From the NCBI GenBank assembly GCA_964543815.1, contig CAZIZG010000003.1, positions 17,833-81,832 on the forward strand: a DNA stretch of 64,000 bases, written 5' to 3'. Below the pieces are notes generated by a model. It did not search any database, was not told the origin of the DNA, and saw only the letters and a program-made list of their open reading frames with translations. Position numbers and translations under genes: made by a program. This DNA is from an uncultured Bdellovibrionales bacterium. Its GTDB lineage: Bacteria > Patescibacteriota > Minisyncoccia > Moranbacterales > UBA1568. This document shows positions 27,500 to 56,054 of the stretch, piece by piece. Position 1 is the first letter of the stretch. The number at the start of each line of letters is the position of its first letter.

Positions 27500-27894
27500 C
27501 CGTGATACTCTACTCTACGGTAAAAGATATCCACCGTCAATCGAAGGGTTGATAGAATCATATATTTCGTGTACTATAAAAGCCCGAGTGACGTCGCTCG
27601 GAGACAGTTCTTTTATCCTCTCGATACGGAAGAGTAGAAGTTCGAGAATTTGTCCGCTGGGGAGATATCTGATGAGTTTCCATGAAACTCTGGTCCCATC
27701 TGAGAACCTATTCCCGACCAATTACTCTCCAAGAGGATGTATCATCTTTGACTCGCGAACCACTCGTTCGCCGTCAGCGCAGAACCCTGCTGCCAAAGAT
27801 GTCACATTTCCCTCATCGAGAACAAACAAAAAACCACCCTTCGATATACTCGGGGTGGTTTTTTGTTTCCTTACTTGGACAAACGCCTCGGCAA

Positions 27895-30696: not shown

Positions 30697-30954
30697 TTAC
30701 TTCTTGTATTGTACCACATTACCCCTATCGTTCTCACGAGATACTTCAAATACCTTTCGTTTTCCTGTCATGCCAGCACGCAGTGTCAGATTTGCCAGAG
30801 GTACCCGGAGAAAGAGTGCTAGTACTCTCCGGACGGCGTCATTAGCTCTACTATCAACTGGCATCGCCCGAACCAATATCCGGAAGTGCGTCTCATCGAG
30901 TTGTTCTACACGCTCTTCACGTGCTCGAGTTTTCACGGTGACAAACAATCTCAT
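30697..30954 (-). CDS. DUF167 / YggU-family protein (UPF0235)
   Basis: 85 aa, MRLFVTVKTRAREERVE...RANDAVRRVLALFLRVPLANLTLRAGMTGKRKVFEV matches the YggU pattern. Confidence 0.6.
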   Translation of the reverse strand: MRLFVTVKTRAREERVEQLDETHFRILVRAMPVDSRANDAVRRVLALFLRVPLANLTLRAGMTGKRKVFEVSRENDRGNVVQYKK

Positions 30955-31547
30955 TTTTTTCGCTTCAACCAGAAAAAAAGACTCGTGGCAGCGAGAGCGC
31001 CGAGCGTATCAGCCAACATATCCTTCTGGGCATCCCAGATATCCCCCTGACTACCGAGGTACGCCGCTCCCGCTTCGGGATTCGCCAGAGCCGCATAGAT
31101 CCATTCGATCAGCTCATAGCTCATCGCCACCGTGGCGATAGTAAAGACCGGATACGTAAAAAGAAGGAAACGGTTCGCTACCAACTTGTGACGTGAGAGA
31201 TATTCTGCCAAGGCATACGCATAAAACCCTACTGAGAAATGAGCTATCCGATCAAAATGATTACGAGCAAAACCAAAAAAATCCGTCACCCAATCAAACG
31301 GTACCAAGGCAAAGGTGTAGTGACCACCAATCGTATGCAGATAGACGAGGACAAACATGAGTCCATACGCCAATCGAGAGAAGCGGACTTCGAGCAGATA
31401 CAAACCAAGGATACAAGAAAGAATGATCCACACTGTCAGGTTTTCCACGAACCAGGTCATCCGGTCTATTGGTGCTACCGCAAGCACTGTAAACAGTACC
31501 CCATACACCGCCATGAGCCACCCCAGCCATTTTCCTGATGATTGCAT
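30951..31547 (-). CDS. DUF2238-family membrane protein (YjdF-like)
   Basis: 198 aa polytopic protein with His-rich loops (HTIGGHYTFALVPFDW..., NHFDRIAHFSVGF). Confidence 0.55.
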   Translation of the reverse strand: MQSSGKWLGWLMAVYGVLFTVLAVAPIDRMTWFVENLTVWIILSCILGLYLLEVRFSRLAYGLMFVLVYLHTIGGHYTFALVPFDWVTDFFGFARNHFDRIAHFSVGFYAYALAEYLSRHKLVANRFLLFTYPVFTIATVAMSYELIEWIYAALANPEAGAAYLGSQGDIWDAQKDMLADTLGALAATSLFFWLKRKK

Positions 31548-40440: not shown

Positions 40441-41115
40441 ATGTCTGCCTGCCACATGGCGGATTTTTGTCCCTCCCACAACTCCAAGGAGTATCACGTG
40501 CACATCATCATCGCCCCCTGTTTCACCAACGGTGACCTCCCGGGCAACGCCCTGGAACTATGTGAGCTGTTCATGCTCCGCCGTGAAGAAGAGGTGCCGA
40601 TCGAAAGCTACACCATCGTCTACGATGGCAAGGAACACGTGGCTCAGGTCGGCCCCGGCAATCACCAGCCGGCCCTCTTCCTTCTCTACTGCATGACCAA
40701 GTCGGCCGCTCCGGCCTTCGAGTTCACGCCTGAGATGCGCCAGCTCGCCCGAGACTACTTCGGTGACGAGATCATGGCAAGCGCCATCCCCTTCGACACC
40801 CGGTACACGACCGTCCACGCCCTCCACGGCCATACGGTCTACATCCGTCTCACCCTCAAGCCGGGCTATCGCAACTGCATGGCCGCCAGCCGCACGGTCG
40901 AGGAAGTCATTGCGCACGGCTGGGACATGCAGGCAGAACTCGGGCCGCAATCGGAAGCGCCCTTCCTGCGCCTGGCCCTCGAACGGTTCTTCGCAGCCAT
41001 CGAAGCAAGGACGCTGCAAGTGGCCGATACCGAGCGGGGACCCTGGCCGACACCCATGTGGGCTGACCGAGCCACCACGCTGCAGCAACTCCTCGGCCAG
41101 ACCGAGACCACCTAA
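40441..41115 (+). CDS. Hypothetical protein, paralog A of a two-member family in this window
   Basis: About 224 aa. Shares ...LFLLYC..., ...LKPGY..., ...HGW..., LGP.S.AP... blocks with the ORF at 54986..55606. High GC. Followed by a terminator. Confidence 0.5.
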   Translation: MSACHMADFCPSHNSKEYHVHIIIAPCFTNGDLPGNALELCELFMLRREEEVPIESYTIVYDGKEHVAQVGPGNHQPALFLLYCMTKSAAPAFEFTPEMRQLARDYFGDEIMASAIPFDTRYTTVHALHGHTVYIRLTLKPGYRNCMAASRTVEEVIAHGWDMQAELGPQSEAPFLRLALERFFAAIEARTLQVADTERGPWPTPMWADRATTLQQLLGQTETT

Positions 41116-41136
41116 TCCGCAACGCGGAGACATACA

Positions 41137-41162
41137 AGCCCGACTCATGCCGGGCTTTTTAT
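41137..41162 (+). terminator. Rho-independent terminator
   Basis: AGCCCG-actcatgc-CGGGCT followed by TTTTATT. Confidence 0.55.
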
Positions 41163-41198
41163 TATGCAACTCTTGATACATCGCCTCCGAAAGGAAAG

Positions 41199-41414
41199 CT
41201 ATGACTGTTTCGAATCCGTTGATCCAGTCTCGATTTTACACGTAGAAATTCCGAAGAGTGAATACAACGCACAGAAACGCATGACTCCCGTGAGAAAAAC
41301 GACGATACCAACTGCGACAAGCCACCACATCATCGAGAGGGAGCCGTACCCAACCAGGATAGCCCCTAAAACCATGCGCACGAGACGATCCACACCTCCA
41401 ACATTTTGTTTCAT
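41199..41414 (-). CDS. DUF2892-family small membrane protein (YgaP-associated)
   Basis: 71 aa, ...GGVDRLVRMVLGAILVGYG...FLTGVMRFCALYSLFGISTC. Confidence 0.55.
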   Translation of the reverse strand: MKQNVGGVDRLVRMVLGAILVGYGSLSMMWWLVAVGIVVFLTGVMRFCALYSLFGISTCKIETGSTDSKQS

Positions 41415-41450
41415 AACAAAAACGTTACTATTTATATCTGTAGTGTAACA

Positions 41451-41762
41451 CTATTTTTTATTGCACACACTGAGAGAAAAAGTGATTGTATCACGTGCTC
41501 GTATCTGTTCCTTCGTTCTCACACTCGCCTTGAGTGGCAAGAGGTAGCCACCCGAACGCTTGTCGGGAAAAATTGATGTCCGCCAAGTAGTCGTGCCAAT
41601 AGTGACCGAAACCGGGAGCGACCCCCATCCCCGGGAGCGACTTCCGAACTGCTCTTTGATGAGCGTGGATTCTTTTTTTGGCAAGGTGACAAAATGCCAG
41701 CTCGCGATATCTCCAGGATAGAGCCACACCTCACCCTTCATAGTAAACGTATTTCCCGACAT
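41451..41762 (-). CDS. DUF1905-domain protein
   Basis: 103 aa, ...GEVWLYPGDIASWHFVTLPKKES... Confidence 0.5.
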   Translation of the reverse strand: MSGNTFTMKGEVWLYPGDIASWHFVTLPKKESTLIKEQFGSRSRGWGSLPVSVTIGTTTWRTSIFPDKRSGGYLLPLKASVRTKEQIRARDTITFSLSVCNKK

Positions 41763-41767
41763 ACTGA

Positions 41768-42163
41768 TCAGCGATTAAGCACCGTGATGGTGAGTTGCAA
41801 AATTGTAGCAAATGACACCCAGAGGAGATATGGGATTTGAGCATAGGCAATGAGACGAGCGTGAGGAAAGATAGCCATCATCGCCCAGACAATAGTCCCC
41901 AGTACGAGCAGGATATCGATCGAGGCCAAGAGATTATTTTTCAGTCCAAACTGAATCCAGGTAAAAGAAAAATTGAAGACGAGATTAAGCACGAACGGCA
42001 GCGCCACCACGAGTGGTATCTGCCCCTGCCAAGCCAGGAAGAAAACCCGACCAAACGTGAGTGCGATGATGACGTAAAGCACCGACCAGACCGGACCAAA
42101 CACCCAAGCTGGTGGTGACCAGGTGGGTTTGATAAGCATGGCGTACTCAGTGAAATTATTCAT
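41768..42163 (-). CDS. tspO: TspO/MBR-family protein (tryptophan-rich sensory protein), N-terminally short
   Basis: 131 aa, WSPPAWVFGPVWSVLYVIIALTFG... and the W-rich TM pattern typical of TspO. Confidence 0.6.
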   Translation of the reverse strand: MNNFTEYAMLIKPTWSPPAWVFGPVWSVLYVIIALTFGRVFFLAWQGQIPLVVALPFVLNLVFNFSFTWIQFGLKNNLLASIDILLVLGTIVWAMMAIFPHARLIAYAQIPYLLWVSFATILQLTITVLNR

Positions 42164-42167
42164 AGCC

Positions 42168-42341
42168 TTATATCCCCCGTGCGAGCAGAAAATCCACCAG
42201 GCTCGGTACCCACATGTCCCGTGTCACGATGAGACCGAGTCCGAGCGCGATGAGCAGAAGCAAAAATATCTGTACCGCTCGAAGCCACGGACTACGACAG
42301 CAATTCCCCTGTTCATTTTTTCCACATGCGCACTGCCACAT
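42168..42341 (-). CDS. Small Cys-rich membrane peptide (57 aa), hypothetical
   Basis: MWQCACGKNEQGNCCRSPWLRAVQIFLLLLIALGLGLIVT... Its stop overlaps the tspO start. Confidence 0.25.
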   Translation of the reverse strand: MWQCACGKNEQGNCCRSPWLRAVQIFLLLLIALGLGLIVTRDMWVPSLVDFLLARGI

Positions 42342-42430
42342 AATTGATAAGTATAAATAATTCTCTTTCAGTATAGCACTGAAAAAAGAAAAAACCGGAG
42401 AGGAATACCTCCCGGCTTGGAACGTGCACG

Positions 42431-42892
42431 CTACAGCGCGCCCTGGGTGGCCAGATGGAGACTCTCCATGAGACCAAAGATGTCTACCAGTGCCAGACGT
42501 TGCTCACCGGTATCAACCGTCGCCATGATGTGCGTGAGCGTATCCGGGTGAGGATGCCCATCCACCAGTCGCACTTGATCTGCGGTGATGTCAAGCACTT
42601 CGGAAACACCATCGACGACGACGCCGATGATGCGGCCAGAAAGGTTCAACACCACGACCACCGTCAGCGGACCGAGACTGCTCTCACAACCCGCCACGAT
42701 GCGCAAATCGATGATGGGGATAGTGACCCCGCGAAGATTGAACACTCCCCTGAGAAACGCTGGCGCCCCATCGATGTGACTCGGCTGCTCGTAGGAGCGG
42801 ATTTCCTGAGCGAGCAGGATATTGAGTCCGTAGTACTCGCCACCGAGACGAAATACCAGGTACTCCCCAGCCAAAGAAGCAGCTTCGGTCAT
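42431..42892 (-). CDS. cheW: Chemotaxis coupling protein CheW (orphan)
   Basis: 153 aa, EYLVFRLGGEYYGLNILLAQEI...VFNLRGVTIPIIDLR... is the CheW-domain pattern. High GC. Confidence 0.8.
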   Translation of the reverse strand: MTEAASLAGEYLVFRLGGEYYGLNILLAQEIRSYEQPSHIDGAPAFLRGVFNLRGVTIPIIDLRIVAGCESSLGPLTVVVVLNLSGRIIGVVVDGVSEVLDITADQVRLVDGHPHPDTLTHIMATVDTGEQRLALVDIFGLMESLHLATQGAL

Positions 42893-43167
42893 GCTGCCCT
42901 CCTTCGGCGCGACTTGGGAGGCAACTCGTGCAACCTGCTGAGCGCGATGCGCGCCTCACGAGCCGTCACTTCCAGAGTGACCAGCGCCTCGTACGAAAAA
43001 GCGCCAATCACCTTGCCCGAACCAGGTCGATAGAGCACGGCCACACTGCCGCTCGGATTGTCCCGAGCAAAGACGACCGCTTTCATCGGAAACTTGGTCC
43101 TGACACCATCAGCCGTTGTCCCCTGACAACGGAGCTTTTCGCGACGCGTGTTCATCGAAACACCCAT
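42889..43167 (-). CDS. Hypothetical protein downstream of cheW
   Basis: About 90 aa (MGVSMNTRREKL...). Overlaps the cheW start by 4 nt. Confidence 0.3.
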   Translation of the reverse strand: MGVSMNTRREKLRCQGTTADGVRTKFPMKAVVFARDNPSGSVAVLYRPGSGKVIGAFSYEALVTLEVTAREARIALSRLHELPPKSRRRRAA

Positions 43168-43291
43168 GTTGCATACCTCACTGTGGTACGCCCAGGCCCG
43201 GGATGGGCCTGCTAGCGACATCGACCCACCCTGTGAGTCGATGAAATATCATCCCCTATTTCAAAATCCCTGTCAACTCCTTCTCGTTTCA

Positions 43292-43330
43292 TATAAAAAG
43301 CGAAAGGTCCCGGCAAAACGCGTTTGCACG
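43292..43330 (-). terminator. Near-perfect 30-bp palindrome functioning as a minus-strand terminator
   Basis: GGTCCCGGCAAAACGCGTTTGCACGGGACC. On the minus strand it is followed by UUUCGCUUUUUAUAU. Confidence 0.5.
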
Positions 43331-43622
43331 GGACCAGTCCTTTCAGACAACTGAGCGGGGCGAGGCTTTTGGGGCCACAAGACCGCTTCATTGTGTAACC
43401 CGGACAGGGCTACGTTAGTCGATGAAGGCTTACGCTCCCTAGGGGGAACAACCTTTCTTCGAACTCGGTGGAATCACACCGAGGGTTTACTGCAGCGGAC
43501 GTGGTTTCCCGTGGGACTCCTCATCCAGTTTCTCCTCGTTTTGGTTGATGACTCTGGTGGTACTCTCTCGAGTATACACCCTTGAGGGATCTCCGCGGCC
43601 GTATCTTCGCGACCGCAGTGCG

Positions 43623-43823
43623 TCAGCTCACCGGCTTCGGAGGCACGGTACCGACGCTGTTCAGCAGGAACCCCGGGTAGGACTCGGGTCCCTTGCCGAA
43701 CAGACCCTGGCATGCGAGCCGGAAACCCATTCGCGCGACCTGCAGCAGATGTACCGTGAAGGTAAACGCTGCGGCCAGAACGGGAACCCGAATCCAGGCG
43801 GCCAGGGCATGCACGAGGCTCAT
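43623..43823 (-). CDS. Small hydrophobic protein (66 aa), RBS-supported
   Basis: MSLVHALAAWIRVPVLAAAFTFTVHLLQVARMGF..., with AAGGGAGG 5 nt before the ATG. Confidence 0.4.
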   Translation of the reverse strand: MSLVHALAAWIRVPVLAAAFTFTVHLLQVARMGFRLACQGLFGKGPESYPGFLLNSVGTVPPKPVS

Positions 43824-43872
43824 GGAGCCTCCCTTCAGTGGGCGCCGAAGCGTCAGGCCAGCGTGGCCAGAC

Positions 43873-44160
43873 GCACGGGCGCGGCCACCGGGTCGCGCAG
43901 CACCGAGGTGCCGGCGCCGTGGCGGCCGTTCTTCAGGTCGACGAAGTTCGAGAGCACGCCGATCACGTTCACGGCGCACCCACCAGGCCCGAGGCGGGGC
44001 CGGCGGCCAGCGGCAGCAGGTTGGTTTCCTGGGAAGCGAACACGCCGGAACGCGCCAGGGACACGCTGCCGAAGCCCGAGTCGAAGAGGCCGATCTTGCC
44101 GGTGCCTTCGCCGCCGCTGCCTTGCAACACACTCACCTTGCCGGTGGTGGGGTCTTTCAT
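43873..44160 (-). pseudogene. Frameshifted gene for a Gly-rich hypothetical protein (about 100 aa)
   Basis: AAGGAGA RBS, then ATG at 44160 giving MKDPTTGKVSVLQGSGGEGTGKIGLFDSGFGSV...GLVGAP, then stop. The +2 frame continues as VNVIGVLSNFVDLKNGRHGAGTSVLRDPVAAPVRLATLA. A 1-nt loss in ccg(g)tg is implied. Confidence 0.4.
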
Positions 44161-44401
44161 TAGGATCTCCTTGATCAAGTTGCGGGAACTCCGCTCGACA
44201 ACCAAGAGGTTGAACGAGCGGATAATTGAAGCCTAGTCATAAGCCACAAGTATCCGCTCGCTCGAAACTATTTCACTGCAAAAATTGAAAGAACTTTCCT
44301 ATCGATAGTACCAAAAAGTTTACTACCGTTCAAGCCAAAAGCCCGAAAGAAAACTCTACGCCATATATCTATTTCTGTCAACCCCTAGAACCACAAAAAA
44401 G

Positions 44402-44457
44402 AAATCCCCCGGTCCGCGGTACGGAACGGGGGTATGGGGCCTCAGTGAGGCGTTGGA
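44402..44457. repeat. 56-bp direct repeat, copy 1 (terminator module)
   Basis: AAATCCCCCGGTCCGCGGTACGGAACGGGGGTATGGGGCCTCAGTGAGGCGTTGGA is identical to 45161..45216. It contains hairpins CCCCCG...CGGGGG and GCCTCA-g-TGAGGC. On the minus strand it is followed by a U-run. Confidence 0.8.
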
Positions 44458-44464
44458 AATCAGA

Positions 44465-45043
44465 CTAGCGGTACGTCATGTACGTCGCAGCGTAGCTCAC
44501 TTCCTCGAAAGAGAGGTACCCGACCTCATGGAGGTAGTATGTCGTACCACCATGAAATCGCGGGTTAACCTTGCGGACCGTGCGACAGCCCGTCACAAAG
44601 AAGTCACGGTAACCGAGCAGCATGGCAAGTAGGTCAACAGCCTCTTCCTTGTCCCACAACGGGTGATGCATGGCATCAATAAGCGGGTGGCAAAGTTCAT
44701 GAGCCATAGCGATGACCGTCGCATCAAACGTGGCCTTGGCCAGAAATGGCTTCCTGATGAAGACCGTCACCTCCGTTTGCCGGAATGCCTCGGATCCAAA
44801 AATTGGCATAACGTCAGGCCTGACCACCCACGCCGGCGCCTGGGGGTTACAACCACCAGAATTCACCAGTCCGAGCCGGACCCGGCAATCGAGATGGAGA
44901 CTCTCCTTGACGCGGTACATCATCCGACCGAACTCACCGGCGTCATACAGAGCACGCAGCTCTTCTTCTGAAACCAGTGGCCGCAGTGGCCCAAAGCTCG
45001 CCCGAAGTTGCTGGACATAAGACTGAATAAGTGCTTGGCGCAT
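44465..45043 (-). CDS. Putative zinc metallopeptidase-like protein (HExxH)
   Basis: 192 aa with IAMAHELCHPLIDAMHHPLWD. Flanked by the two copies of the 56-bp repeat. Confidence 0.45.
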   Translation of the reverse strand: MRQALIQSYVQQLRASFGPLRPLVSEEELRALYDAGEFGRMMYRVKESLHLDCRVRLGLVNSGGCNPQAPAWVVRPDVMPIFGSEAFRQTEVTVFIRKPFLAKATFDATVIAMAHELCHPLIDAMHHPLWDKEEAVDLLAMLLGYRDFFVTGCRTVRKVNPRFHGGTTYYLHEVGYLSFEEVSYAATYMTYR

Positions 45044-45160
45044 GGCACCCTCCTTTGCATACGTTGCAATTGATAAAAGACTCGAAAGGAACTACGAACA
45101 CTCCTTTATAGCATAAAAATACATTTTTGTCAATATGAGAAAACATCCGCAAAAAATAAA

Positions 45161-45216
45161 AAATCCCCCGGTCCGCGGTACGGAACGGGGGTATGGGGCC
45201 TCAGTGAGGCGTTGGA
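45161..45216. repeat. 56-bp direct repeat, copy 2 (terminator module)
   Basis: Identical to 44402..44457. Lies just downstream (minus strand) of gene 45228..45602. Confidence 0.8.
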
Positions 45217-45227
45217 GTGGCCGTGGC

Positions 45228-45602
45228 CTACTGCTGGCCGCTGGCGCCGGCGTCCTGCTGGCTGAACAGCTTCAGGCCTTCGGCGGCGGCGACGGCCATC
45301 TCGCGCACGGCCTGGTGCGACATGATGCCGATCACGCGGTTGTCGCCGTCGATGAACTTGATCGCGGCCGGCTTCTTGCCCTTGGCCGGGAGCAGCTTGC
45401 CGGACCAGGAGTTGACCTCGCCGCCGTCCGGGGCCGTGCCATGGAACTTGATGTAGCCCGACGTGTCGGTGACGATGGCCTTGTCCTGGCGGCGCTTGCG
45501 CTGCTGCTGGCCGGAACCGATGCCGATCGACTGATCGCTCGCCAGCGAGCCGAGGGCGGCAGCCAGACCAGCCATCAGGGCGTTCACGTGATGCTTCTGC
45601 AT
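45228..45602 (-). CDS. Secreted hypothetical protein (about 124 aa)
   Basis: GGAGA RBS, then MQKHHVNALMAGLAAALGSLASDQ, a signal-peptide-like N-terminus. High GC. The longer overlapping ORFs in other frames are GC artefacts. Confidence 0.45.
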   Translation of the reverse strand: MQKHHVNALMAGLAAALGSLASDQSIGIGSGQQQRKRRQDKAIVTDTSGYIKFHGTAPDGGEVNSWSGKLLPAKGKKPAAIKFIDGDNRVIGIMSHQAVREMAVAAAEGLKLFSQQDAGASGQQ

Positions 45603-45747
45603 GGGAATCTCCGAGGGTTGCAGTTGATGCTTCAAGAGCCCGACACGGGTCTTGTAAAGCAAAGATCGACCATAGAGGCCGACAAAAGAGGAGTGTACAG
45701 CAAATACCCTCCCCTGTCAAGGGTGGTTATCCACAAAAAATCAATAT

Positions 45748-45915
45748 GCTATTTGAAGAAGTAGGGATGAACAGCTAGACCCAAGTAGTAGGGCCACAAG
45801 AGCACGGCGAGCACCCCCTGCCAAAAACTCAGGTGCAAAAAGCCGATAGTAAATATCCAAGCCGCCATCCACAGGCCACCAGAAAAAAGATGGTTTTCAA
45901 TTTTTACCTTTTCCA
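45748..45915 (-). CDS. Small two-TM membrane peptide (55 aa), hypothetical
   Basis: MEKVKIENHLFSGGLWMAAWIFTIGFLHLSFWQGVLAVLLWPYYLGLAVHPYFFK. Immediately upstream of pspC on the same strand. Confidence 0.3.
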
Positions 45916-45930
45916 TAAAATTGTTTTCCC

Positions 45931-46161
45931 TCAGACCGAGAGAGGCTTTTCTTCTCGCGGAAGTGGGACGATAAAAATAGCGATGATGTAGACCAGAATC
46001 CCCGGAGCAAAGCCAGTAAAGACCGTGAGGAAAACCCAGAGCAATCGAAACAAAACCGGATCAATACTCCAGTACTCCCCGAGTCCCCCGCAAATGCCAG
46101 CCAGGGTCTGATTGGTGCGGCTGCGAAAGAGATGACGCATCGGTGTATCTGTCATAGTCAT
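45931..46161 (-). CDS. pspC: PspC-domain protein (phage-shock protein C family)
   Basis: 76 aa, ...RSRTNQTLAGICGGLGEYWSIDPVLFRLLWVFLTVF... is the PspC signature. Confidence 0.75.
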   Translation of the reverse strand: MTMTDTPMRHLFRSRTNQTLAGICGGLGEYWSIDPVLFRLLWVFLTVFTGFAPGILVYIIAIFIVPLPREEKPLSV

Positions 46162-46216
46162 ATCTTACTGATTACACCTCCAGTATACTCTTTCTCCCTC
46201 GAGAATAACAGGTTGT

Positions 46217-46615
46217 CTATCTACTCTTTTTCTTTTTATTCTGAGCGACTGTAAGCTTGGTTTCCTTGACGCGGAAACGGACGATTTTGGTGATGAGGGC
46301 AAGCGGCAGTGGTTTCCCGATAGGAAACTGGATAGCACCCTTGGAATACTGGTAGCGTTTGGCGATTTCTGCTTCGAACTGTTTCACTCCGGAAGGTGCC
46401 GGATAAAAACCGTAGTGATTTTTCTGTACCGCGAAGTGGACGAGATTTTTACCATTGAAGCGTATCGTCGGCATCCCGTACCGTATCGCTTCTTCGCCCT
46501 CCGGCACGAGCTCACGAAGGAGTAGCCAGAGACGCTTCGCCTCCCCCTGCGCGTCCCGCGGCACTTGCTTCAAATATTCCCCGACTGTTTCGTACGTTTG
46601 CATAGTAAGTATCAA
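46217..46615 (-). CDS. DUF1801 (YdhG-like) domain protein
   Basis: 132 aa, ...EAIRYGMPTIRFNGKNLVHFAVQKNHYGFYP... Confidence 0.55.
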   Translation of the reverse strand: MILTMQTYETVGEYLKQVPRDAQGEAKRLWLLLRELVPEGEEAIRYGMPTIRFNGKNLVHFAVQKNHYGFYPAPSGVKQFEAEIAKRYQYSKGAIQFPIGKPLPLALITKIVRFRVKETKLTVAQNKKKKSR

Positions 46616-46694
46616 AAATCATTTTCATCCGTAGTATATATGACATTTTTAAAAAGAAAAACGGCTTCGGTAAACCTACCAAAGCCGCGAAAAA

Positions 46695-47063
46695 CTACCA
46701 GCTCAAGACCCGCCCGATGACCTCGATCAGCTTGTTCGGATCAAACGGCTTCACGAGCCAGCCCGTTGCACCGGCAGCCTTGCCCTTCATCTTCATCGCG
46801 TCACTCGACTCGGTGGTGAGGAAAAGAATGGGCGTCTTCGGGAAACGGGGATCCGCGCGCATCTTCTCGGTCAGCGTGAGACCGTCCATGCGTGGCATGT
46901 TCTGGTCGAGGAGCACGAGGTCAAACTTCGCGCCCCGCTCGATCTGCTCCCACGCATCCTGACCGTCCACCGCGAGGAGCACCTCGTAGCCGGCGTTCCT
47001 AAGCGTGAACGACACCATCTGGCGCATCGACGCGCTGTCATCAACCACAAATATCGTCTGCAT
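46695..47063 (-). CDS. cheY: Chemotaxis-type response regulator CheY (orphan)
   Basis: 122 aa, IFVVDDSASMRQMV...DLVLLDQNMPRMDG...LTTE...K...GWLVKPF. High GC. Confidence 0.8.
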   Translation of the reverse strand: MQTIFVVDDSASMRQMVSFTLRNAGYEVLLAVDGQDAWEQIERGAKFDLVLLDQNMPRMDGLTLTEKMRADPRFPKTPILFLTTESSDAMKMKGKAAGATGWLVKPFDPNKLIEVIGRVLSW

Positions 47064-47167
47064 GAATCATGCCTCCTTCGTCAAACAACTACTCCGCTAC
47101 AAAACCGACACCGCAGTAAATCATCGAATCCCTCCCCTGTCAACCAGTCATGAGAGACTAAGTCATC

Positions 47168-47560
47168 TCAGGCATGAGGAATCTGCTCCACGAGGAGCGC
47201 CTGACCCGAACTATCGAGGTAAGTACAAGTCATCGCCTCCATGTCGACTCGCCACCTCTCTACTCCGGCTCGGGCTGCATCCTGACAAAAAGTGAAGTAG
47301 TCACTCCCTCCAGCCTGGTGACGAGCGAGGTCAGCCCGAAACGCGGCCGCATCTCCCATGGTTGCCACCTGAAGCGGCGCATAGATCGGTTCACTCTGAA
47401 GTACAGCATCTTCTCCCCCGACGTATTCCGCATGACCGTCCACGACAAAGACATCATACCTTCGCACGCCGAGAGCAATGAGCGCCTGTACGTAGGCAGG
47501 AAAATCCGCTCCACTTTTCACAACACTATGAGCCGCCGCAATCTGTTCCAAAGTAAACAT
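47168..47560 (-). CDS. DUF1398-family protein
   Basis: 130 aa beginning MFTLEQIAAAHSVVKSGADFPAYVQALIALGV. High GC. Confidence 0.55.
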   Translation of the reverse strand: MFTLEQIAAAHSVVKSGADFPAYVQALIALGVRRYDVFVVDGHAEYVGGEDAVLQSEPIYAPLQVATMGDAAAFRADLARHQAGGSDYFTFCQDAARAGVERWRVDMEAMTCTYLDSSGQALLVEQIPHA

Positions 47561-47598
47561 ATGGTTTCAAACAATCATTGTTCTAATTTTTTTATTCC

Positions 47599-47829
47599 TC
47601 AACAATTTTTTCTCAGGATGGCCAGGCACTCTTCATACGCGTCAGCGAGACCACCGAAATATTCATTACGACCAAAAACTTCTATGTCCTCACTTTCACA
47701 AAGTTCTTCCCGCCAAACCTCTCGAAATTTTTTTGCCAAAACCTCTATCTCTACTTCGCTTCGATGAGACATCATAATTAAATGGAATAATTTTGATCCC
47801 ATTTTTGATCGAAGCAGCAGAACTGTCAA
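47599..47829 (-). CDS. Small hypothetical protein downstream of res (low-GC island)
   Basis: 76-aa ORF. The likely start is MGSKLFHLIMMSHRSEVEIEVLAKKF... Weak call. Confidence 0.25.
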   Translation of the reverse strand: MTVLLLRSKMGSKLFHLIMMSHRSEVEIEVLAKKFREVWREELCESEDIEVFGRNEYFGGLADAYEECLAILRKNC

Positions 47830-47975: not shown

Positions 47976-50633
47976 TCACATAATATCAATTAAATCTTCC
48001 TTCGTTGCCACCTTAAAATTCTCAAATCCGATCGCTCTAAAATGTTTCTCTCCACAGAAAATCTTCTGCTGCTCAACCAATGGTAGTTCAGCAGTCAAAT
48101 CCTCATATCCAAATTTTGTTTCCCGTACAAGATATAATTTTTCTCCCTCACTCGTATTCCATACAATTGCCCAGTCCGGAATATATCCCCCAAGCGGAGT
48201 ATCCACCACAAACCCGCGCGGAAGCTTTGTATACACCCGGACGTTTTGACTTTGTTCCAAATGCTCAGCAAATAATTTTTCGCCTTTACTATCAAACGCT
48301 ACACGATCAAATACCGACTTATCACTCTCAATACTCTTACTTGGCAACACTTCGAAATCCTTAAAAAGTACATCAACCTCCCAATAATCACCCGTTGGAA
48401 TATACTTCAATCCTTCATTGATCAATAAATCATTCAGACACCCATTCAAAATCACAACGACACTCCGAATGTACTCTTCTGGATTATCAAGCAGCAAATC
48501 AAGATTCTCTACACGAGACAAAGCATCGAAAACGGTCCTCCTCGTTAACCCAGTTTCACGCGCAATGCGATCAACCACATTCTGCAAAAATACCTTCCGA
48601 TCCAACTTTGCCCCAGCGGACTGGCCAGCATATACCGTCTGTATTTTGTTTCTTTCATCGAAATAGACATTAACCTTCTCAACCGTCACGATCAAATTCG
48701 AGATATTCCGCTCGTTGATCTTTTCGACAGCATTCCCGATCAATTTTTCTGTTTGGACTTCGATATTGAACTTCGTCCGCTGGCTAATTCTCTTCCAAAG
48801 CTCCTTAAAATCATCTTCGCCAATATACTTGGTCGGCCGCACCAACACCTTCTTTTCCTTGGCATCTGTCATTTCTACTTGTTCTGTATAACCAGCCTCG
48901 GTAAATTCCGCCTGCAACTGCCCGACATACTCCCGATAGCTCTCATTTGCCACTACCGTCAGAGTATTTATTCGGGGATCATACACGCGATTACCATTCA
49001 CATCCACAGCCAAGCGCAAACCGCGGCCGATTTCTTGCCGCTTTTTCATGAGAGAATTCGTCTCGCGCAAAGTACAAATCTGAAAAATATTCGGGTTATC
49101 CCATCCCTCCTTCAAAGCAGAGTGCGAAAAGATAAACGAAACAGGCTCAGAGAAAGAAAGCAATCGTTCCTTATCCTTCATGATCAAATCATAGGCCTCC
49201 TTGTCTATCTTGGAATCACCACGCGTATCCTGAAAAACCACCTGCCCCTTCTCTTTCTTACTGGCAAAATATCCTTTGTGAACAGTCTGTACATCGGCAT
49301 CCTTGAACTGATCATAATTCCCCTTCAATCTCTCAAATTCCTCAACAAAAATCTTCCGAATCAAACTCTCTTCGTGGGTATAATTATCAACTCGATCAAT
49401 GAAAAACAATGACAAAACTTTGATACCCATTCCAAGCTCTTCTTGTTTATCAAAATGCGCTTTGATCGTCTCGCGAATCTGCGTGCGAAATACGGCTTCT
49501 TTATTCTCACTCCCCTCATCCAAGCGATAATACTTTCCATCCGAAAGCTCGACGCGATTGTGTTGCGCATTAACGTCGTTCACTTGTAGTCCAGCATATG
49601 CCGCATTCTTGGTCTTTCGCGCCACATCATCCCCTGCCTTCAAGACAATTTCTTTTCGGACAAACTCATCATTGGCATTTTTTATTTCTACTAAAACCTT
49701 TGCCTTTGGGGACTCCCCTTTCTTCGTTTCAATACTCCGCACCCTGAAAACCAATGCATTCGAATCATCATCCTTCACACCAAATACCGATATCTTTTTG
49801 ACTAACCCTTTCTTATAAGCATCAATCGGCGTCAGGCGATAGACAAGATTATGGATCTCTTTGTGCGTCGCGCTATATCGTAACTTGAAAAGCGGAGCCA
49901 AATCAGCAATGGCCGCCTTCGAAAGTTCTGACTCCATATTCTGCGGCTCATCCATGATCACCACTGGTCGAGTTGCTGCCACGAGACTGATCGGACTTTC
50001 ACCATTGAAGCGATCCGGCGTCGAGCGCATGATATTAGTATCACTATTGAACGACTGAATCGTCATCACCATGATTTGAATGTCCAGCCCTTGTGCGAAA
50101 TCACGCACGCGCGAAAGTTTACTAGAATCGTATGCAAAGTATCCATACCCCACACCATACAAATCTCGAAAGTGCTCTTTGGTTTGTTCGAGTGTTTTCA
50201 AAACGCCCTCACGGATGGCCACGCTCGGAACAAGAATGATAAACTTCTTCAATCCATATTTCTTGTTGAGTTCAAAGATTGTCCGAAGATAAACATAGGT
50301 CTTTCCAGTACCCGTTTCCATTTCAATGGAAAAATCGAAACCACTCAACTTTTTATCTGGTTCACCACCAAACACATATTCCCCAAATGCACCAGCAAAC
50401 TCGCTAATATCATCTACTTTTTCAAAAAGGGAATTTCTTTTCTGTATAGAAAATAAGTTTTTTAAAATTCTATCCTGTTCAATCTCCAACTCATTTTTTA
50501 TTACAGAAACAGCCGAGCGCAACTCAAAAGACTCTTCACTTCTTACAAAGTTTCTTCCAGTATCAAAGATATCCACGATCGCATCGACCGCTTCCAGCTG
50601 ATACCCTAGATCTTTTGAGAATTTAAATTTCAT
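47976..50633 (-). CDS. res: Type III restriction enzyme, Res subunit (SF2 helicase-like endonuclease)
   Basis: 885 aa with Walker A METGTGKTY, DEAH-like VIMDEPQN, helicase motif VI-like IGRGLR, and a C-terminal endonuclease region. Last gene of the operon. Confidence 0.85.
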   Translation of the reverse strand: MKFKFSKDLGYQLEAVDAIVDIFDTGRNFVRSEESFELRSAVSVIKNELEIEQDRILKNLFSIQKRNSLFEKVDDISEFAGAFGEYVFGGEPDKKLSGFDFSIEMETGTGKTYVYLRTIFELNKKYGLKKFIILVPSVAIREGVLKTLEQTKEHFRDLYGVGYGYFAYDSSKLSRVRDFAQGLDIQIMVMTIQSFNSDTNIMRSTPDRFNGESPISLVAATRPVVIMDEPQNMESELSKAAIADLAPLFKLRYSATHKEIHNLVYRLTPIDAYKKGLVKKISVFGVKDDDSNALVFRVRSIETKKGESPKAKVLVEIKNANDEFVRKEIVLKAGDDVARKTKNAAYAGLQVNDVNAQHNRVELSDGKYYRLDEGSENKEAVFRTQIRETIKAHFDKQEELGMGIKVLSLFFIDRVDNYTHEESLIRKIFVEEFERLKGNYDQFKDADVQTVHKGYFASKKEKGQVVFQDTRGDSKIDKEAYDLIMKDKERLLSFSEPVSFIFSHSALKEGWDNPNIFQICTLRETNSLMKKRQEIGRGLRLAVDVNGNRVYDPRINTLTVVANESYREYVGQLQAEFTEAGYTEQVEMTDAKEKKVLVRPTKYIGEDDFKELWKRISQRTKFNIEVQTEKLIGNAVEKINERNISNLIVTVEKVNVYFDERNKIQTVYAGQSAGAKLDRKVFLQNVVDRIARETGLTRRTVFDALSRVENLDLLLDNPEEYIRSVVVILNGCLNDLLINEGLKYIPTGDYWEVDVLFKDFEVLPSKSIESDKSVFDRVAFDSKGEKLFAEHLEQSQNVRVYTKLPRGFVVDTPLGGYIPDWAIVWNTSEGEKLYLVRETKFGYEDLTAELPLVEQQKIFCGEKHFRAIGFENFKVATKEDLIDIM

Positions 50634-50637
50634 CCTT

Positions 50638-51381
50638 TTAACTAATGTTGTTATCCAAAGAAAACATTTTCACAAAAAACTTCCCCTTATCTGTTAGAGT
50701 TATATCCTTATTCTTATTAGAGAACTCTATTAATCCATTTGTATGTGAATATGCCATGACCCCCTTAGGAATGCCACGCTCCGTATAATCCCCAACAGTC
50801 CACCTGATACTACCCTCATACTGATATACAGATTCAATAAGAAAATTAAAGTCATTATAATATTCAGACTTTTTAAATGATTCATACTCTTCATTCCAGC
50901 TAACCGTCGGATCAATATTTCTGATTGCCTTTTCTTTCTTTACTTTTTCTTCAAGAACAACCAGCTTTTCAGTCTCAGCTTCTTCAAATCTCTTTTCGGC
51001 ATCGCTTAATTTCCTTTGTTCATCTATCCTTATTTTTCTTTTCTTTGTTCTATCTTCTTCATCTTTTTTAAAGGCTGGAATTAAAAACCAATCCGGAAAC
51101 TTCCAAATAACAAAGTACGTCAAAATAAATGGCATTATCCATGAAATCCAAAAATAAGGATCACTCACATTAAAAAATTCCTGGCTTAAATAATCACTCT
51201 TAAGTAATTGTTTTGACTTCCAAATTCTATCTTCGCTCACCAAAAAGACAGTGACGAGTAATTTCCAATGAAAAACTGACCACCAAATAGAAAACACACC
51301 ATAGATAGGAGTATTTACCTTTTCTTTCCAAGACTCGCTTATTGAGTCAGTAATTTCATTACTAACTTTTGGAATTTTCAT
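50638..51381 (-). CDS. Unknown 2-TM membrane protein embedded between mod and res (protein Y, 247 aa)
   Basis: Two TM helices (IYGVFSIWWSVFHWKLLVTVFLV; FWISWIMPFILTYFVIWKF), a highly charged coiled coil (KKDEEDRTKKRKIRIDEQRKLSDAEKRFEEAETEK...) and a C-terminal domain of about 90 aa. There is a 4-nt gap to res and an 11-nt gap to the upstream gene. Confidence 0.6.
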   Translation of the reverse strand: MKIPKVSNEITDSISESWKEKVNTPIYGVFSIWWSVFHWKLLVTVFLVSEDRIWKSKQLLKSDYLSQEFFNVSDPYFWISWIMPFILTYFVIWKFPDWFLIPAFKKDEEDRTKKRKIRIDEQRKLSDAEKRFEEAETEKLVVLEEKVKKEKAIRNIDPTVSWNEEYESFKKSEYYNDFNFLIESVYQYEGSIRWTVGDYTERGIPKGVMAYSHTNGLIEFSNKNKDITLTDKGKFFVKMFSLDNNIS

Positions 51382-51392
51382 AACACTCCAAG

Positions 51393-52379
51393 TTATTTAT
51401 CAGATTTAGTTAACTCAATAACTTGTCTCACTGGGTTTCCGGGATTACTTATGGTTTTTAAATAGCCCGTGTCCTTGGTATCAAAAATTGCTCTAGTTAA
51501 CTCAGCAAGCATTGCGTTGGCCGTCTCCTTATCATTTTCGCTTTCGGTCGGACGAATAGAATTTAATAGTGCTTGATGGGAATCAAGAGCATTCTGACGC
51601 TGGGTATTTACATAATAGAGGTGTTTTTCAGCAGAATAATTTCTATTGAAATGAGCAATAGCGAAACCTCCAATTGAAAGAATCAAAAACTTTAGCAATA
51701 ACCCCTGATGAAAAATCTCGGTTAGAACTTGACTAGTATTTTGATTCTGGACTCTTACAAACCAATCGGTATCCCCTGCAAGCAAAAGAATAGCAATAAT
51801 CAGTGTCACTCCAGCGCTCAAAGCCATATATGTCTGAGCGTTTTTTGCCGCTTGGTCATTTTTATCAGCACAATCCCCAAAAAACCTTCCATACTTTATA
51901 GCCTCAATCTTCTGGGCCTCATTCTGAACAGTACTGAGTAAAGACTGTGCTTTTGTAATCTGTGCCTCAAACTCCCCTATCTTACCCTGAGCGTCGATAA
52001 TCTGCCTCTTAAACTCCTCATTTTTAGCAGGATCTTTCAAAACAAGGAACGTGTAAAATGGTCCCATGCTTTGATGTAACTCAAACTCTTTATTTCTTAT
52101 GGTATCAAGCCATTGTTGTCTCTCGTTAATATTCTGAAAACCAAGAATTTGATTTTTCAGCTGCAAGAATTGCTGTAAATGAGTACGGATACTGTTTAAA
52201 AACTGTGGCGGAAAATTTTCAAGATCCGCATGATTAAAAATCGTATCAAAAACTTCCCTTATCCCCTCAAAAGAGGGCTTCGACTCTTCAAGGCTATAAG
52301 AACCCAGGTCCTTTCTTAACAAAGAAGTCCAATCTAAGCTTCTATATTGTTCTATAGAATCGCGAAGTTGCTGATCCAT
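51393..52379 (-). CDS. Unknown protein with an N-terminal helical domain and a 2-TM hairpin, embedded between mod and res (protein X, 328 aa)
   Basis: A soluble helical N-terminus of about 190 aa, then TYMALSAGVTLIIAILLLAG and LLLKFLILSIGGFAIAHF TM helices, then a C-terminal tail of about 70 aa. Lies 5 nt after the mod stop. Confidence 0.6.
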   Translation of the reverse strand: MDQQLRDSIEQYRSLDWTSLLRKDLGSYSLEESKPSFEGIREVFDTIFNHADLENFPPQFLNSIRTHLQQFLQLKNQILGFQNINERQQWLDTIRNKEFELHQSMGPFYTFLVLKDPAKNEEFKRQIIDAQGKIGEFEAQITKAQSLLSTVQNEAQKIEAIKYGRFFGDCADKNDQAAKNAQTYMALSAGVTLIIAILLLAGDTDWFVRVQNQNTSQVLTEIFHQGLLLKFLILSIGGFAIAHFNRNYSAEKHLYYVNTQRQNALDSHQALLNSIRPTESENDKETANAMLAELTRAIFDTKDTGYLKTISNPGNPVRQVIELTKSDK

Positions 52380-52384
52380 ACGGA

Positions 52385-54271
52385 TTAAATCACTTTCAAA
52401 ATTACATTCTTCGAAATATTCACTTTTGTTGTGTCATCAAGCGCAGAATCGAGACACACAAAAATATCTTCTAGTTTGAGACCGAGAGACTCGACTTGCT
52501 CTTTAGAAATTTTTTCCACAAATGTTACAGCAAGCTTTTTATTGTCATCAATAACAACCCAAGAATTAAGATCATCCTTTTCCTGTGTAACCTTAGCATT
52601 TAAACTAAAACCTTCTTTAACAAGAATTTCGTATACGACCGCACGCTCATCGTAACCGTCAACAAGTGGATACTCGAGAAAAAGTTTAGACTGAGCCAAG
52701 AGCTTTTCTTGATCATCATTTTCGGTCAAAACACTCCACTGTCGATAATTTGATTTTTGAAGTACAAAAGTCTTGAAGCCCGTATCTCCTTTATCAACTT
52801 TCTCTCCTGCGCGCCGGATACGCTCTCGAGAAATATCAGCAATGGTCTTGTATCCAGCTTTGTATGCCTCACTTTTCTCATCCGTCGCTTCTGGCAACTG
52901 CACACAGATCCACTTCCGATTCCCATCATCCTCATCGTTCAAATCCATCACTGCATGCGCTGTCGTTCCGGAGCCAGCAAAAAAATCAAGCACCAAATCA
53001 TCTTTTCTTGTGCCAACAGTCAAACACTTTTTTATCAAATCGATTGACTTAGGAAAATCAAAATAAGAACTACCCTCAAAAAGCTCTCTGAATATTTCCT
53101 TACCGAACTCGTTATTTATTTCACTTTCGATCCAAAGCGCCTTTTGTTTTGTAGTTGCTAACTCGCCACTTTCATCATGCAAATAGTCTTTTCTATATAC
53201 TCTCCAGGCCCCCGTATTTACTTCTTTAGCCAAGAGATTGCTTATATTTTCTGCAACTTTTTTCTGACCCCAGGTCCAACAACCCTCTACTCCTTTTGAA
53301 TTAAGTGGCATTGCCTCAACAATAAAGCCTTCATCCCTCTTTAAAGAAACCTCGTTGGTTTTTGGATTTACATAGATAGGGTAAAAAAGATTCGGGCGAT
53401 TTGAACGATTAAAGACCGGGTTTCGATTCCTTAATTCTAACAATCGAAATTTTCCATTCTTATCTTCTTTATTATACTCAGAAATCTTTTCTTCACTTTT
53501 CACAATTTCATACAGACCACCGTCTTCTATATTTTTAGCATATACCAAAATATACTCATGTGTTTTAGCAAAGTACCTATCAAGAGTACGTCCTCGAGGA
53601 TTTAATTGAACAATAATTTGAGCCACAAAATTCTCCTCACCGAAAACCTCATCCATGATGAGATGAAGATTGGCGGCTTCGTTATCATCGATAGAGATAA
53701 AAATCACACCATCTTCACGAAGAAGATTTTTTGCCAAAAACAGTCGCGGATACATCATGGTAAGCCAGTCACTATGAAAACGACCGTTCTTCTCGGTATT
53801 GGCAGTCATTTTGATCCCGCCTTCTGTCTGACCGGTCTGCTCATAATAATCAGCGACGCTCTGCGCGAAATTATCCTTATATACAAAATCATGCCCCGTA
53901 TTATACGGTGGGTCAATATAAATCATCTTAATCTGTTCGCGATATTTCTTCTGGAGCAATTTCAATACCTCGAGATTATCTCCTTCGATAAAAACATTCT
54001 CGGTCTTGTCCCAATTCTTGCTCTCATCTTCCTGAGGAAACAGAGTTCCTTTGGCTGTCTCACGAATCAGCCGAAAGGCATTACTTTTTCCAGCCCAGTT
54101 CAAACCATACTTTTCTTCTCTGCCAGCAATTCCCTCTGCGTCAAAAAACTTCTTGAGCGCATCAAAATCAACCGAGCCATCTTTTACAAACTGCGGAAAT
54201 ACCCTCCGAAGCTTCTCCAGATTCTCATTCTGTATGTTTTCAGATGTTGTAGAAACTTTTTCAATAGTCAT
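52385..54271 (-). CDS. mod: Type III R-M DNA methyltransferase, Mod subunit (N6-adenine, beta class)
   Basis: 628 aa with IYIDPPYNTGHDF (DPPY motif) and FDFFAGSGTTAHA (SAM motif I). Confidence 0.85.
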   Translation of the reverse strand: MTIEKVSTTSENIQNENLEKLRRVFPQFVKDGSVDFDALKKFFDAEGIAGREEKYGLNWAGKSNAFRLIRETAKGTLFPQEDESKNWDKTENVFIEGDNLEVLKLLQKKYREQIKMIYIDPPYNTGHDFVYKDNFAQSVADYYEQTGQTEGGIKMTANTEKNGRFHSDWLTMMYPRLFLAKNLLREDGVIFISIDDNEAANLHLIMDEVFGEENFVAQIIVQLNPRGRTLDRYFAKTHEYILVYAKNIEDGGLYEIVKSEEKISEYNKEDKNGKFRLLELRNRNPVFNRSNRPNLFYPIYVNPKTNEVSLKRDEGFIVEAMPLNSKGVEGCWTWGQKKVAENISNLLAKEVNTGAWRVYRKDYLHDESGELATTKQKALWIESEINNEFGKEIFRELFEGSSYFDFPKSIDLIKKCLTVGTRKDDLVLDFFAGSGTTAHAVMDLNDEDDGNRKWICVQLPEATDEKSEAYKAGYKTIADISRERIRRAGEKVDKGDTGFKTFVLQKSNYRQWSVLTENDDQEKLLAQSKLFLEYPLVDGYDERAVVYEILVKEGFSLNAKVTQEKDDLNSWVVIDDNKKLAVTFVEKISKEQVESLGLKLEDIFVCLDSALDDTTKVNISKNVILKVI

Positions 54272-55682: not shown

Positions 55683-56054
55683 CTAGCCCTCTACCAAGAC
55701 TTCGAAGCCGCCGTAGGCCACGCGCTTCGGATCAAACGGCATTGGTCCCTTGAAGTTTTCTGGAGCCATAAGCGGATCATTCATCACCTTGGCATTGACC
55801 TGGTCACGATGCTTGCGTGATTTGAAAACGATATAGGAAAACACGACTACTTCACCTTTCTTCAAATTGGTCATCTTGGGAAAAAGTGGCGCCATCCCCA
55901 TCGACTTGGAGCGGATATCCTCACTCACGCATTCTTTGTAATCAAGTGCCCCACATTTTTTCCACACCTTGGCCCCGAGCTTGGCCATCTTTTTGTAATC
56001 ACCCAAGTTTTTCTCCGGCATCACAATCACAAATCCGTCCACATACTTCGCCAT
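55683..56054 (-). CDS. DUF1428-family protein
   Basis: 123 aa beginning MAKYVDGFVIVMPEKNLGDYKKMA... Confidence 0.6.
   Translation of the reverse strand: MAKYVDGFVIVMPEKNLGDYKKMAKLGAKVWKKCGALDYKECVSEDIRSKSMGMAPLFPKMTNLKKGEVVVFSYIVFKSRKHRDQVNAKVMNDPLMAPENFKGPMPFDPKRVAYGGFEVLVEG

Follow-up and report, generated by a model that had tools for sequence, protein, structure and literature searches.

Background

Repeated sequence on both sides of a bacterial gene recalls several described systems. Attachment-site (attL/attR) elements and long target-site duplications place direct repeats around inserted DNA, and the target-site duplications of transposons measure 2-15 bp, which makes a repeat of 56 bp far longer. 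REP and MITE elements are short, structured units of intergenic DNA, and phage "morons" are foreign genes that bring a promoter and a terminator of their own into a series of resident transcription units. An arrangement with a terminator duplicated on both sides of a gene has been built in the engineered SPbeta::spc, where the gene is a marker (PMC8880864). In the literature we found no paper on natural terminator duplication, the engineered example being the only one, nor did any paper mention the sample accessions.

Here we analyze a 64-kb stretch of bacterial DNA (the window) in which two identical 56-bp terminator modules bracket a gene for an HExxH peptidase-like protein. We propose, with a probability of roughly 0.7, that the terminator of the upstream gene, which encodes 124 aa, was duplicated once and locally in the event that inserted a foreign, promoter-bearing HExxH gene before the promoter of the next operon.

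Results

A perfect 56-bp repeat in independent assemblies

An exact search of the 64-kb window located the 56-mer AAATCCCCCGGTCCGCGGTACGGAACGGGGGTATGGGGCCTCAGTGAGGCGTTGGA, as read on the plus strand, at two positions with no mismatches (copies A and B, Table 1), whereas 100 shuffles gave no match. Extension of the pair without gaps reaches 63 nt with two mismatches (44395-44457 and 45154-45216). The first-pass annotation had reported this identical direct repeat around an HExxH peptidase-like gene in a region with no other redundancy, and both statements were confirmed, as the pair is the sole strong repeat in the window. The remaining direct repeats of at least 22 nt show 71-91% identity and look like chance matches, and no diverged third copy was returned by a short-word BLAST of the window. 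The minus strand carries all genes near the locus and almost all of those in the window; copy A begins 11 nt past the stop codon of the 124-aa gene and copy B 7 nt past that of the 192-aa HExxH gene.

Table 1 Features of the locus (positions in the window)
Feature	Position	Strand	Remarks
124-aa gene, original owner of the terminator	45228-45602	-	GC 0.68, GC3 0.94
Promoter of the 124-aa gene	45692-45720	-	TTGACA-17-TACACT
DnaA-box sequence TTATCCACA	45727-45735	+	perfect; just upstream of the -35 of the 124-aa promoter
Copy A, native terminator module of the 124-aa gene	45161-45216	-	orthologous two-hairpin terminator behind every 124-aa orthologue
Copy A, stem-loop 1	45198-45210	-	GCCTC-ACT-GAGGC
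Copy A, terminator hairpin	45165-45191	-	
Copy A, U-run ATTTTTTATTTTTT	45151-45164	-	begins within the repeat and runs on beyond it
Unique segment between the repeats	44458-45160	-	703 bp, GC 0.52; lineage-specific insertion
HExxH promoter-like site	45105-45133	-	TTGACA, 17 nt, TATAAA, TG at extended -10; read from sequence
HExxH protein	44465-45043	-	192 aa; HELCH at residues 115-119; minimal zincin/SprT-like metallopeptidase fold
Copy B, duplicated terminator module now serving the HExxH gene	44402-44457	-	
Copy B, stem-loop 1	44439-44451	-	
Copy B, terminator hairpin	44406-44432	-	
Copy B, U-run ATTTCTTTTTT	44395-44405	-	
Downstream neighbor: promoter (44353-44381), leader of ~190 nt, mini-operon of 63, 39 and 66 aa	43635-44381	-	high GC; L026 1619-2409, 82% identity

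Two identical modules could in principle come from an assembly or chimera artefact, or from convergence or gene conversion between unrelated terminators, and some short contigs do end inside the repeat. Logan contigs break 30 nt into it from either side (at 45187 and about 44431), which is consistent with an assembly break at a repeat. The same arrangement recurs across several samples and with each of the assemblers SPAdes, megahit k141 and Logan. Look-ups by exact protein sequence yielded contigs that agree with the window at 99.9-100%, drawn from several samples and three assembly methods, and both copies occur with the same flanks in six fetched loci from five contigs. Both copies lie, with identical flanks, within SPAdes and k=141 megahit contigs that derive from different samples; because the k-mer of the megahit contigs is longer than the repeat that these contigs bridge, the arrangement is not an assembly artefact. 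The assembly duplication that had been named beforehand as a possible refutation was not seen, given that independent assemblies reproduce both copies. Convergence is made unlikely by the 56/56 identity, which includes loops and spacer that function does not constrain. Ongoing gene conversion is made unlikely by a strain variant (L003) with A>G at repeat position 53 in copy B alone, from which it follows that the copies evolve independently and without ongoing homogenisation. We consider this whole group of explanations scarcely credible.

A synthetic construct, suggested by near-consensus promoters and modular units, was ruled out as well, as the locus occurs in many environmental assemblies and has diverged orthologues.

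Both copies have the anatomy of an intrinsic terminator

At the RNA level each copy folds as (((((...))))) and ((((((.(((((...))))).)))))), followed by a U-run. Stem-loop 1 is a 5-bp stem in both (GCCUC-ACU-GAGGC), and the main hairpin is a G+C-rich stem of 11 bp with one internal mismatch (CCCCCG.UCCGU-ACC-GCGGA.CGGGGG), with a U-rich tract directly 3' of the stem (AUUUUUUAUUUUUU at copy A, AUUUCUUUUUU at copy B). Minimum free energies in contexts of 86-91 nt are -32.8 and -29.4 kcal/mol, with z-scores of -2.4 and -2.8. Read from sequence, each copy thus has the anatomy of an intrinsic (Rho-independent) terminator right 3' of a gene. The first-pass annotation had placed each copy immediately behind a minus-strand gene with two hairpins and a U-run, and the fold computed for both agrees; its further claim that each acts as an intrinsic terminator holds for the anatomy of both copies, while termination itself is predicted from the fold. 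Rfam returned no match, either at gathering thresholds over the whole window or at E ≤ 1 over 43400-45800.

The stem of GCCTC-loop-GAGGC is invariant in all relatives while its surroundings diverge, and stem-loop 1 is not needed for intrinsic termination. Elsewhere in the window, the terminator screen scored a palindromic, apparently bidirectional terminator on both strands at 27828-27860 (AAAAAACCACCC...GGGTGGTTTTTT).

Copy A is the ancestral copy

For the 124-aa protein, nine homologues at 61-100% identity were found, of which the orthologues in loci L021-L036 show 61-75%. The homologue contigs come from related genomes, and their common neighbors are DUF1801, PspC, DUF2238, CheW and TspO. 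When terminator architecture was compared across six distinct relatives, every 124-aa orthologue was followed by GCCTCnnn(n)GAGGC, a short C-rich spacer, CCC(C/T)AGGTTCGCAYYGCGCGCCT(G/A)GGG and a T-run. The second stem carries a compensatory change from C-G to U-A, with CCCTAGG/CCTAGGG in L021 and L036 as opposed to CCCCAGG/CCTGGGG elsewhere. To the left of copy A lies an 11-nt spacer, gccacggccac, which is kept as gccgcggccac in L026 and L033. BLAST against the loci of the relatives delimited a block of homology from 45739, in the promoter region, to 45165, exactly the end of the hairpin, with the promoter and DnaA-box stretch (45692-45735) forming its left edge. On the strength of the orthologous terminator in all relatives and of this shared block, copy A is the vertically inherited, native terminator of the 124-aa gene. 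Since copy A is native and the HExxH gene is absent behind it in relatives, copy B is a one-off duplicate.

Protein-guided searches for the 124-aa family recovered no loci in GTDB representatives and only two short loci in JGI metagenomes, one of them duplicating L024. The protein has no Pfam or NCBIfam match, and its structure model is of low confidence (pLDDT 58). In related loci L021 and L029 a DUF2238 gene lies directly upstream of the 124-aa unit; in the window DUF2238 is found at 30951-31547. GC3 values of 0.76-0.95 are found for small minus-strand genes at 45228-45602, 43853-44160 and 43635-43835, against 48.6% GC for the genome. The 124-aa gene has orthologues (61-75% protein identity) that also look GC-rich in the stretches read, and the high GC3 is therefore not suggestive of a simple, un-ameliorated recent transfer.

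The DnaA box reads TGTGGATAA on the strand of the 124-aa gene and may mark DnaA-dependent regulation of that gene. At this promoter, GTGGATAAC is conserved in L021, L026, L029, L033, L034 and L036, whatever lies upstream. The window shows no sign of an origin of replication, and its GC skew is monotonic.

The HExxH gene is a lineage-specific insertion

In the 703-bp segment between the repeats, a T-rich stretch lies upstream of a promoter and 5' UTR, which are followed by the HExxH coding sequence and by the 7 nt after its stop codon. The promoter was missed by the consensus promoter scan because its -10 hexamer ends in A. In the encoded protein the HExxH motif lies on the active-site helix within a zincin fold. 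The best Pfam match is DUF4344 at 18.9 bits, below the cut-off of 29.6 bits, and there is no NCBIfam match and no curated family membership. Close homologues number only 17 (51-61% identity), and those examined have unrelated neighborhoods and unrelated terminators. DNA similarity of the segment to the fetched loci of relatives is confined to the coding sequence and the ribosome-binding-site region, and is to distant HExxH homologues. A profile search returned 846 cluster representatives, so the family is unannotated but not rare; phage, plasmid and IMG/VR collections gave no match.

In all relatives examined, the HExxH gene is absent behind the orthologous terminator. The slot is occupied instead by an unannotated 74-aa ORF in L021-25, by a reverse 66-aa gene and DUF1428 in L026, by TfoX_N in L029 and by a 95-aa gene in L034. 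L026 is the closest relative with sequence through the slot, and the different insertion found there has no flanking repeat or duplication. Relatives have an orthologous terminator and other genes in the slot, which answers the question of the first-pass annotation whether the HExxH gene and one repeat are missing from related genomes; its suggestion of recombination scars around the HExxH gene fits, as the relatives retain the upstream gene and its terminator. It had also supposed that a lack of other copies together with conserved synteny would mean a simple local duplication. The first half stands in the sequences searched, with no other copies found there and a local duplication, whereas synteny at the HExxH slot is not conserved, which ties the duplication to the insertion.

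The right flank of copy B, CTAGGGGTTGACAGAAAT, has its homologue in the 63/39/66-aa operon promoter of L026 and is by this homology native to the next operon. An empty site, in which the 124-aa gene and its terminator module (T) are followed directly by the 63-aa operon, was not found in any genome examined, and exact look-ups of the 63-aa protein and of CheW (18 and 7 contigs read) revealed no strain without the insertion. The ancestral empty state is thus a reconstruction from sequence.

Two side observations concern this slot. DUF1428, which stands in the HExxH slot of L026, is found in the window at 55683-56054. The leader of the downstream operon (~190 nt, 44161-44353, minus strand) contains a strong inverted repeat (44212-44235 and 44240-44263) and is ~82% conserved at L026 1640-1846; it is a possible cis-regulatory RNA, and Rfam gave no match to it even at E ≤ 1.

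The repeat does not behave as a mobile element

The perfect repetition of a compact, highly structured intergenic unit had suggested a mobile REP/MITE-like terminator cassette, of which A and B would be two among many dispersed genomic copies. Copy number speaks against this. Only two copies occur in 64 kb, with no diverged ones, and the 27-nt hairpin core had no exact match in three public collections (GTDB representative genomes, IMG/VR and JGI metagenomes); as far as the window and these collections reach, the recommended search for further copies came back negative. Terminator-like sites were also compared over about 130 kb, comprising the window and eight related-genome loci, and the pair in the window was the only high-scoring pair within one genome, the others being orthologues between genomes. 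Structure and descent are equally unfavorable. The unit lacks terminal inverted repeats: its ends, TCCAACGC and GGGGATTT, do not form an inverted repeat, and TCCAACGC... does not pair with ...GGGGGATTT. Neither copy is flanked by a target-site duplication, the two having no short duplicated sequence in common at their borders, and copy A corresponds by orthology to the terminator that follows the 124-aa gene in every relative. The claim of a mobile cassette is accordingly not supported, and we regard dispersal of this kind as very improbable.

A different possibility is that a 759-bp cassette of promoter, HExxH gene and T was mobilised in trans and recombined at the resident terminator, leaving attL/attR-like repeats of 56 bp. 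The perfect repeats do bracket the expression unit tightly, leaving 7 nt beyond the stop codon and about 27 nt ahead of the -35, and the surroundings are an array of single-gene units whose neighbors differ between relatives. The only hint of a second case is in L034, where a 372-aa gene is bracketed by two similar, diverged terminators. Against this, a Pfam scan of about 50 window ORFs identified no integrase, transposase or recombinase domain, the insert encodes the HExxH protein alone, and the 27-nt core has no other occurrence in the three collections. HExxH homologues elsewhere are not followed by anything like T, a search of phage, plasmid and IMG/VR collections did not turn up the family, and the insertion in the same slot of L026 lacks a flanking repeat. 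The window is ordinary housekeeping chromosome (MraW, PBP, UvrA, UvrC and type IV pilus genes), and no tRNA genes were found as integration sites. Every contig that reaches the slot carries the insertion; neither a precise empty site, as an att element would leave, nor an alternative context was found in any contig. An integron cassette fares no better. No GTTRRRY core site of the attC type is present at the 3' boundary, the 5' 7-mers (TTCCAAC and CTCCAAC) do not begin with a purine, and the unit forms two separate local hairpins, not one long imperfect palindrome. The HExxH unit also has its own TTGACA-17-TATAAA promoter, and no integrase was found among the roughly 50 window ORFs scanned. 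We consider a trans-mobilised cassette unlikely.

More doubtful still is the general form of this idea, in which promoter-bearing single-gene cassettes would integrate at intrinsic terminators, used as attachment or priming sites, and duplicate about 56 bp on each occasion. If true, this would be an undescribed route of gene addition in the lineage and would explain the array of shuffled one-gene units, with the L034 pair as an older instance.

A sequence motif, TTTTTTGYGG, was considered as a recombination motif at cassette boundaries and set aside. Three of its six matches in the window lie inside ORFs, and in the 124-aa unit the T-run and GTGG overlap the conserved DnaA-box-like GTGGATAAC by the promoter.

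Gene content around the locus

At about 41000-47600 in the window, and in L021-L036, co-oriented one-gene units form an array, each with a TTGACA-type promoter, and the order and content of these units differ between related genomes. In L034, diverged but similar terminators at 1390-1440 and 2679-2730 (CCCCGAG...CCCGGGGCTCTTTTTTTA, with different inner stems) bracket a promoter and the 372-aa gene; on the same strand, an ORF upstream of them stops shortly ahead of the first terminator, and the architecture is as in the window. This pair may be an older instance of the window arrangement. In L029 (7072-7115, 7926-7952 and 10221-10281), paralogous reverse-strand genes of 210 and 201 aa have flanking sequence in common, with a 27-nt terminator-like repeat at 96% identity as part of it; here a gene was duplicated in the ordinary way together with its flanks.

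A low-GC island (32-44% GC) on the minus strand at 47976-54271 carries a type III-like restriction-modification set made up of an N6_N4 methyltransferase of 628 aa, two unknown proteins and a ResIII/RE_endonuc protein of 885 aa. In matching contigs the island is adjoined by small GIY-YIG and MazE-like genes. The segment 40300-41180 has 61-65% GC and long overlapping ORFs on both strands with no Pfam match. The long contigs L001 and L002 end inside it, at about 40976, which suggests an assembly-breaking or variable spot. Other gene content of the window includes DUF5671, Pif1, YdjM and type IV pilus genes, and by this gene content the lineage looks Patescibacteria-like.

Discussion

Origin of the duplication

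In the insertion that we propose, the HExxH gene would have arrived as a self-contained unit in the manner of a phage moron and taken its terminator from its neighbor, producing the order gene - T - [promoter - HExxH] - T - next operon. Copy A would still end the 124-aa transcript and shield the HExxH promoter from read-through, and copy B would end the HExxH transcript and shield the downstream operon. The outcome would be three consecutive units, each with its own promoter and terminator.

As to the route, we favor one duplicative insertion at the hairpin-rich terminator, through template switching or microhomology-mediated repair; next in rank comes Campbell-type integration, with the same 56 bp carried on a small circle. 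The left junction lies within T-runs (GGGGGATTT/TTTATTTTTT, which can also be read as GGGGGATTT/TTTATTTTTTGCGG), and microhomology at the right junction is 1-2 nt at most. These junctions fit template switching or microhomology-mediated repair, though homology this minimal does not discriminate between mechanisms. The end product would be no different had a circle integrated, or had a tandem duplication been followed by replacement.

The latter requires two steps. T, or the 124-aa gene together with T, would have been duplicated in tandem, and the HExxH unit would later have replaced or filled the intervening DNA. Tandem duplications are common in bacteria, and a similar T-run with GYGG after both copies (TTTTTTGCGG and TTTTTTGTGG) could be what is left of a longer, decayed duplication. 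Two independent events would be needed at one spot, however, and the 703-bp insert has no similarity to the 124-aa blocks of relatives, which in BLAST match 45739-45165 only. There are also three differences in the 16 nt after the repeat as opposed to none in its 56 nt, a distribution with a probability of about 0.01 ((16/72)^3, our own estimate, which assumes one uniformly ageing duplication) unless the T-run mutates faster. Finally, TTTTTTGTGG also occurs before the 124-aa promoter in relatives, with no hairpin there, so the motif looks promoter-associated. We judge a two-step history to be improbable, and retain duplication and insertion in one event as the preferred reading.

Significance

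The repeat pair marks the HExxH gene as a probably recent acquisition, which is useful for annotation and for the history of genome change, and the 56-bp repeat should not be counted as a mobile-element family. Under the proposed origin, copying the terminator of its neighbor would have turned an acquired gene into a fully insulated transcription unit. Through homologous recombination between its 56-bp direct repeats the HExxH gene could also be lost, a possible source of variation between strains; such recombination would leave 124-aa gene - T - CTTTTTTGTGGTTCTAGGGG. Should more cases come to light, terminators might prove to be where small, strand-biased genomes preferentially take up new genes, a generalization for which one case is insufficient.

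Comparison with known systems

The module of this locus is similar to an ordinary intrinsic terminator in having a G+C-rich hairpin and a U-run a few nucleotides past the stop codon, and in keeping its structure at orthologous positions through compensatory change. It differs in the small extra stem-loop, GCCUC...GAGGC, that precedes the hairpin, and in its presence as two identical copies on consecutive genes. Shortness, structure and an intergenic position after genes are features held in common with REP and MITE elements, but here two copies were found, terminal inverted repeats are absent and one copy is vertically inherited. Like attL/attR or a long target-site duplication, the repeats are identical, direct and bracket inserted DNA; unlike an attL/attR element, the locus has no recombinase, element ends or evidence of excision, and its cargo is one gene. 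The closest natural parallel in layout is the phage moron, a foreign gene with a sigma-70-like promoter and a factor-independent terminator set between resident units that remain undisturbed, although the context here is chromosomal housekeeping DNA, not prophage, and the terminator was copied from the upstream neighbor. SPbeta::spc (PMC8880864) has the same order of terminator, inserted gene and terminator, with the insert insulated from its neighbors; in that case the order was deliberately designed and made through homologous recombination, whereas the origin of the present locus is natural.
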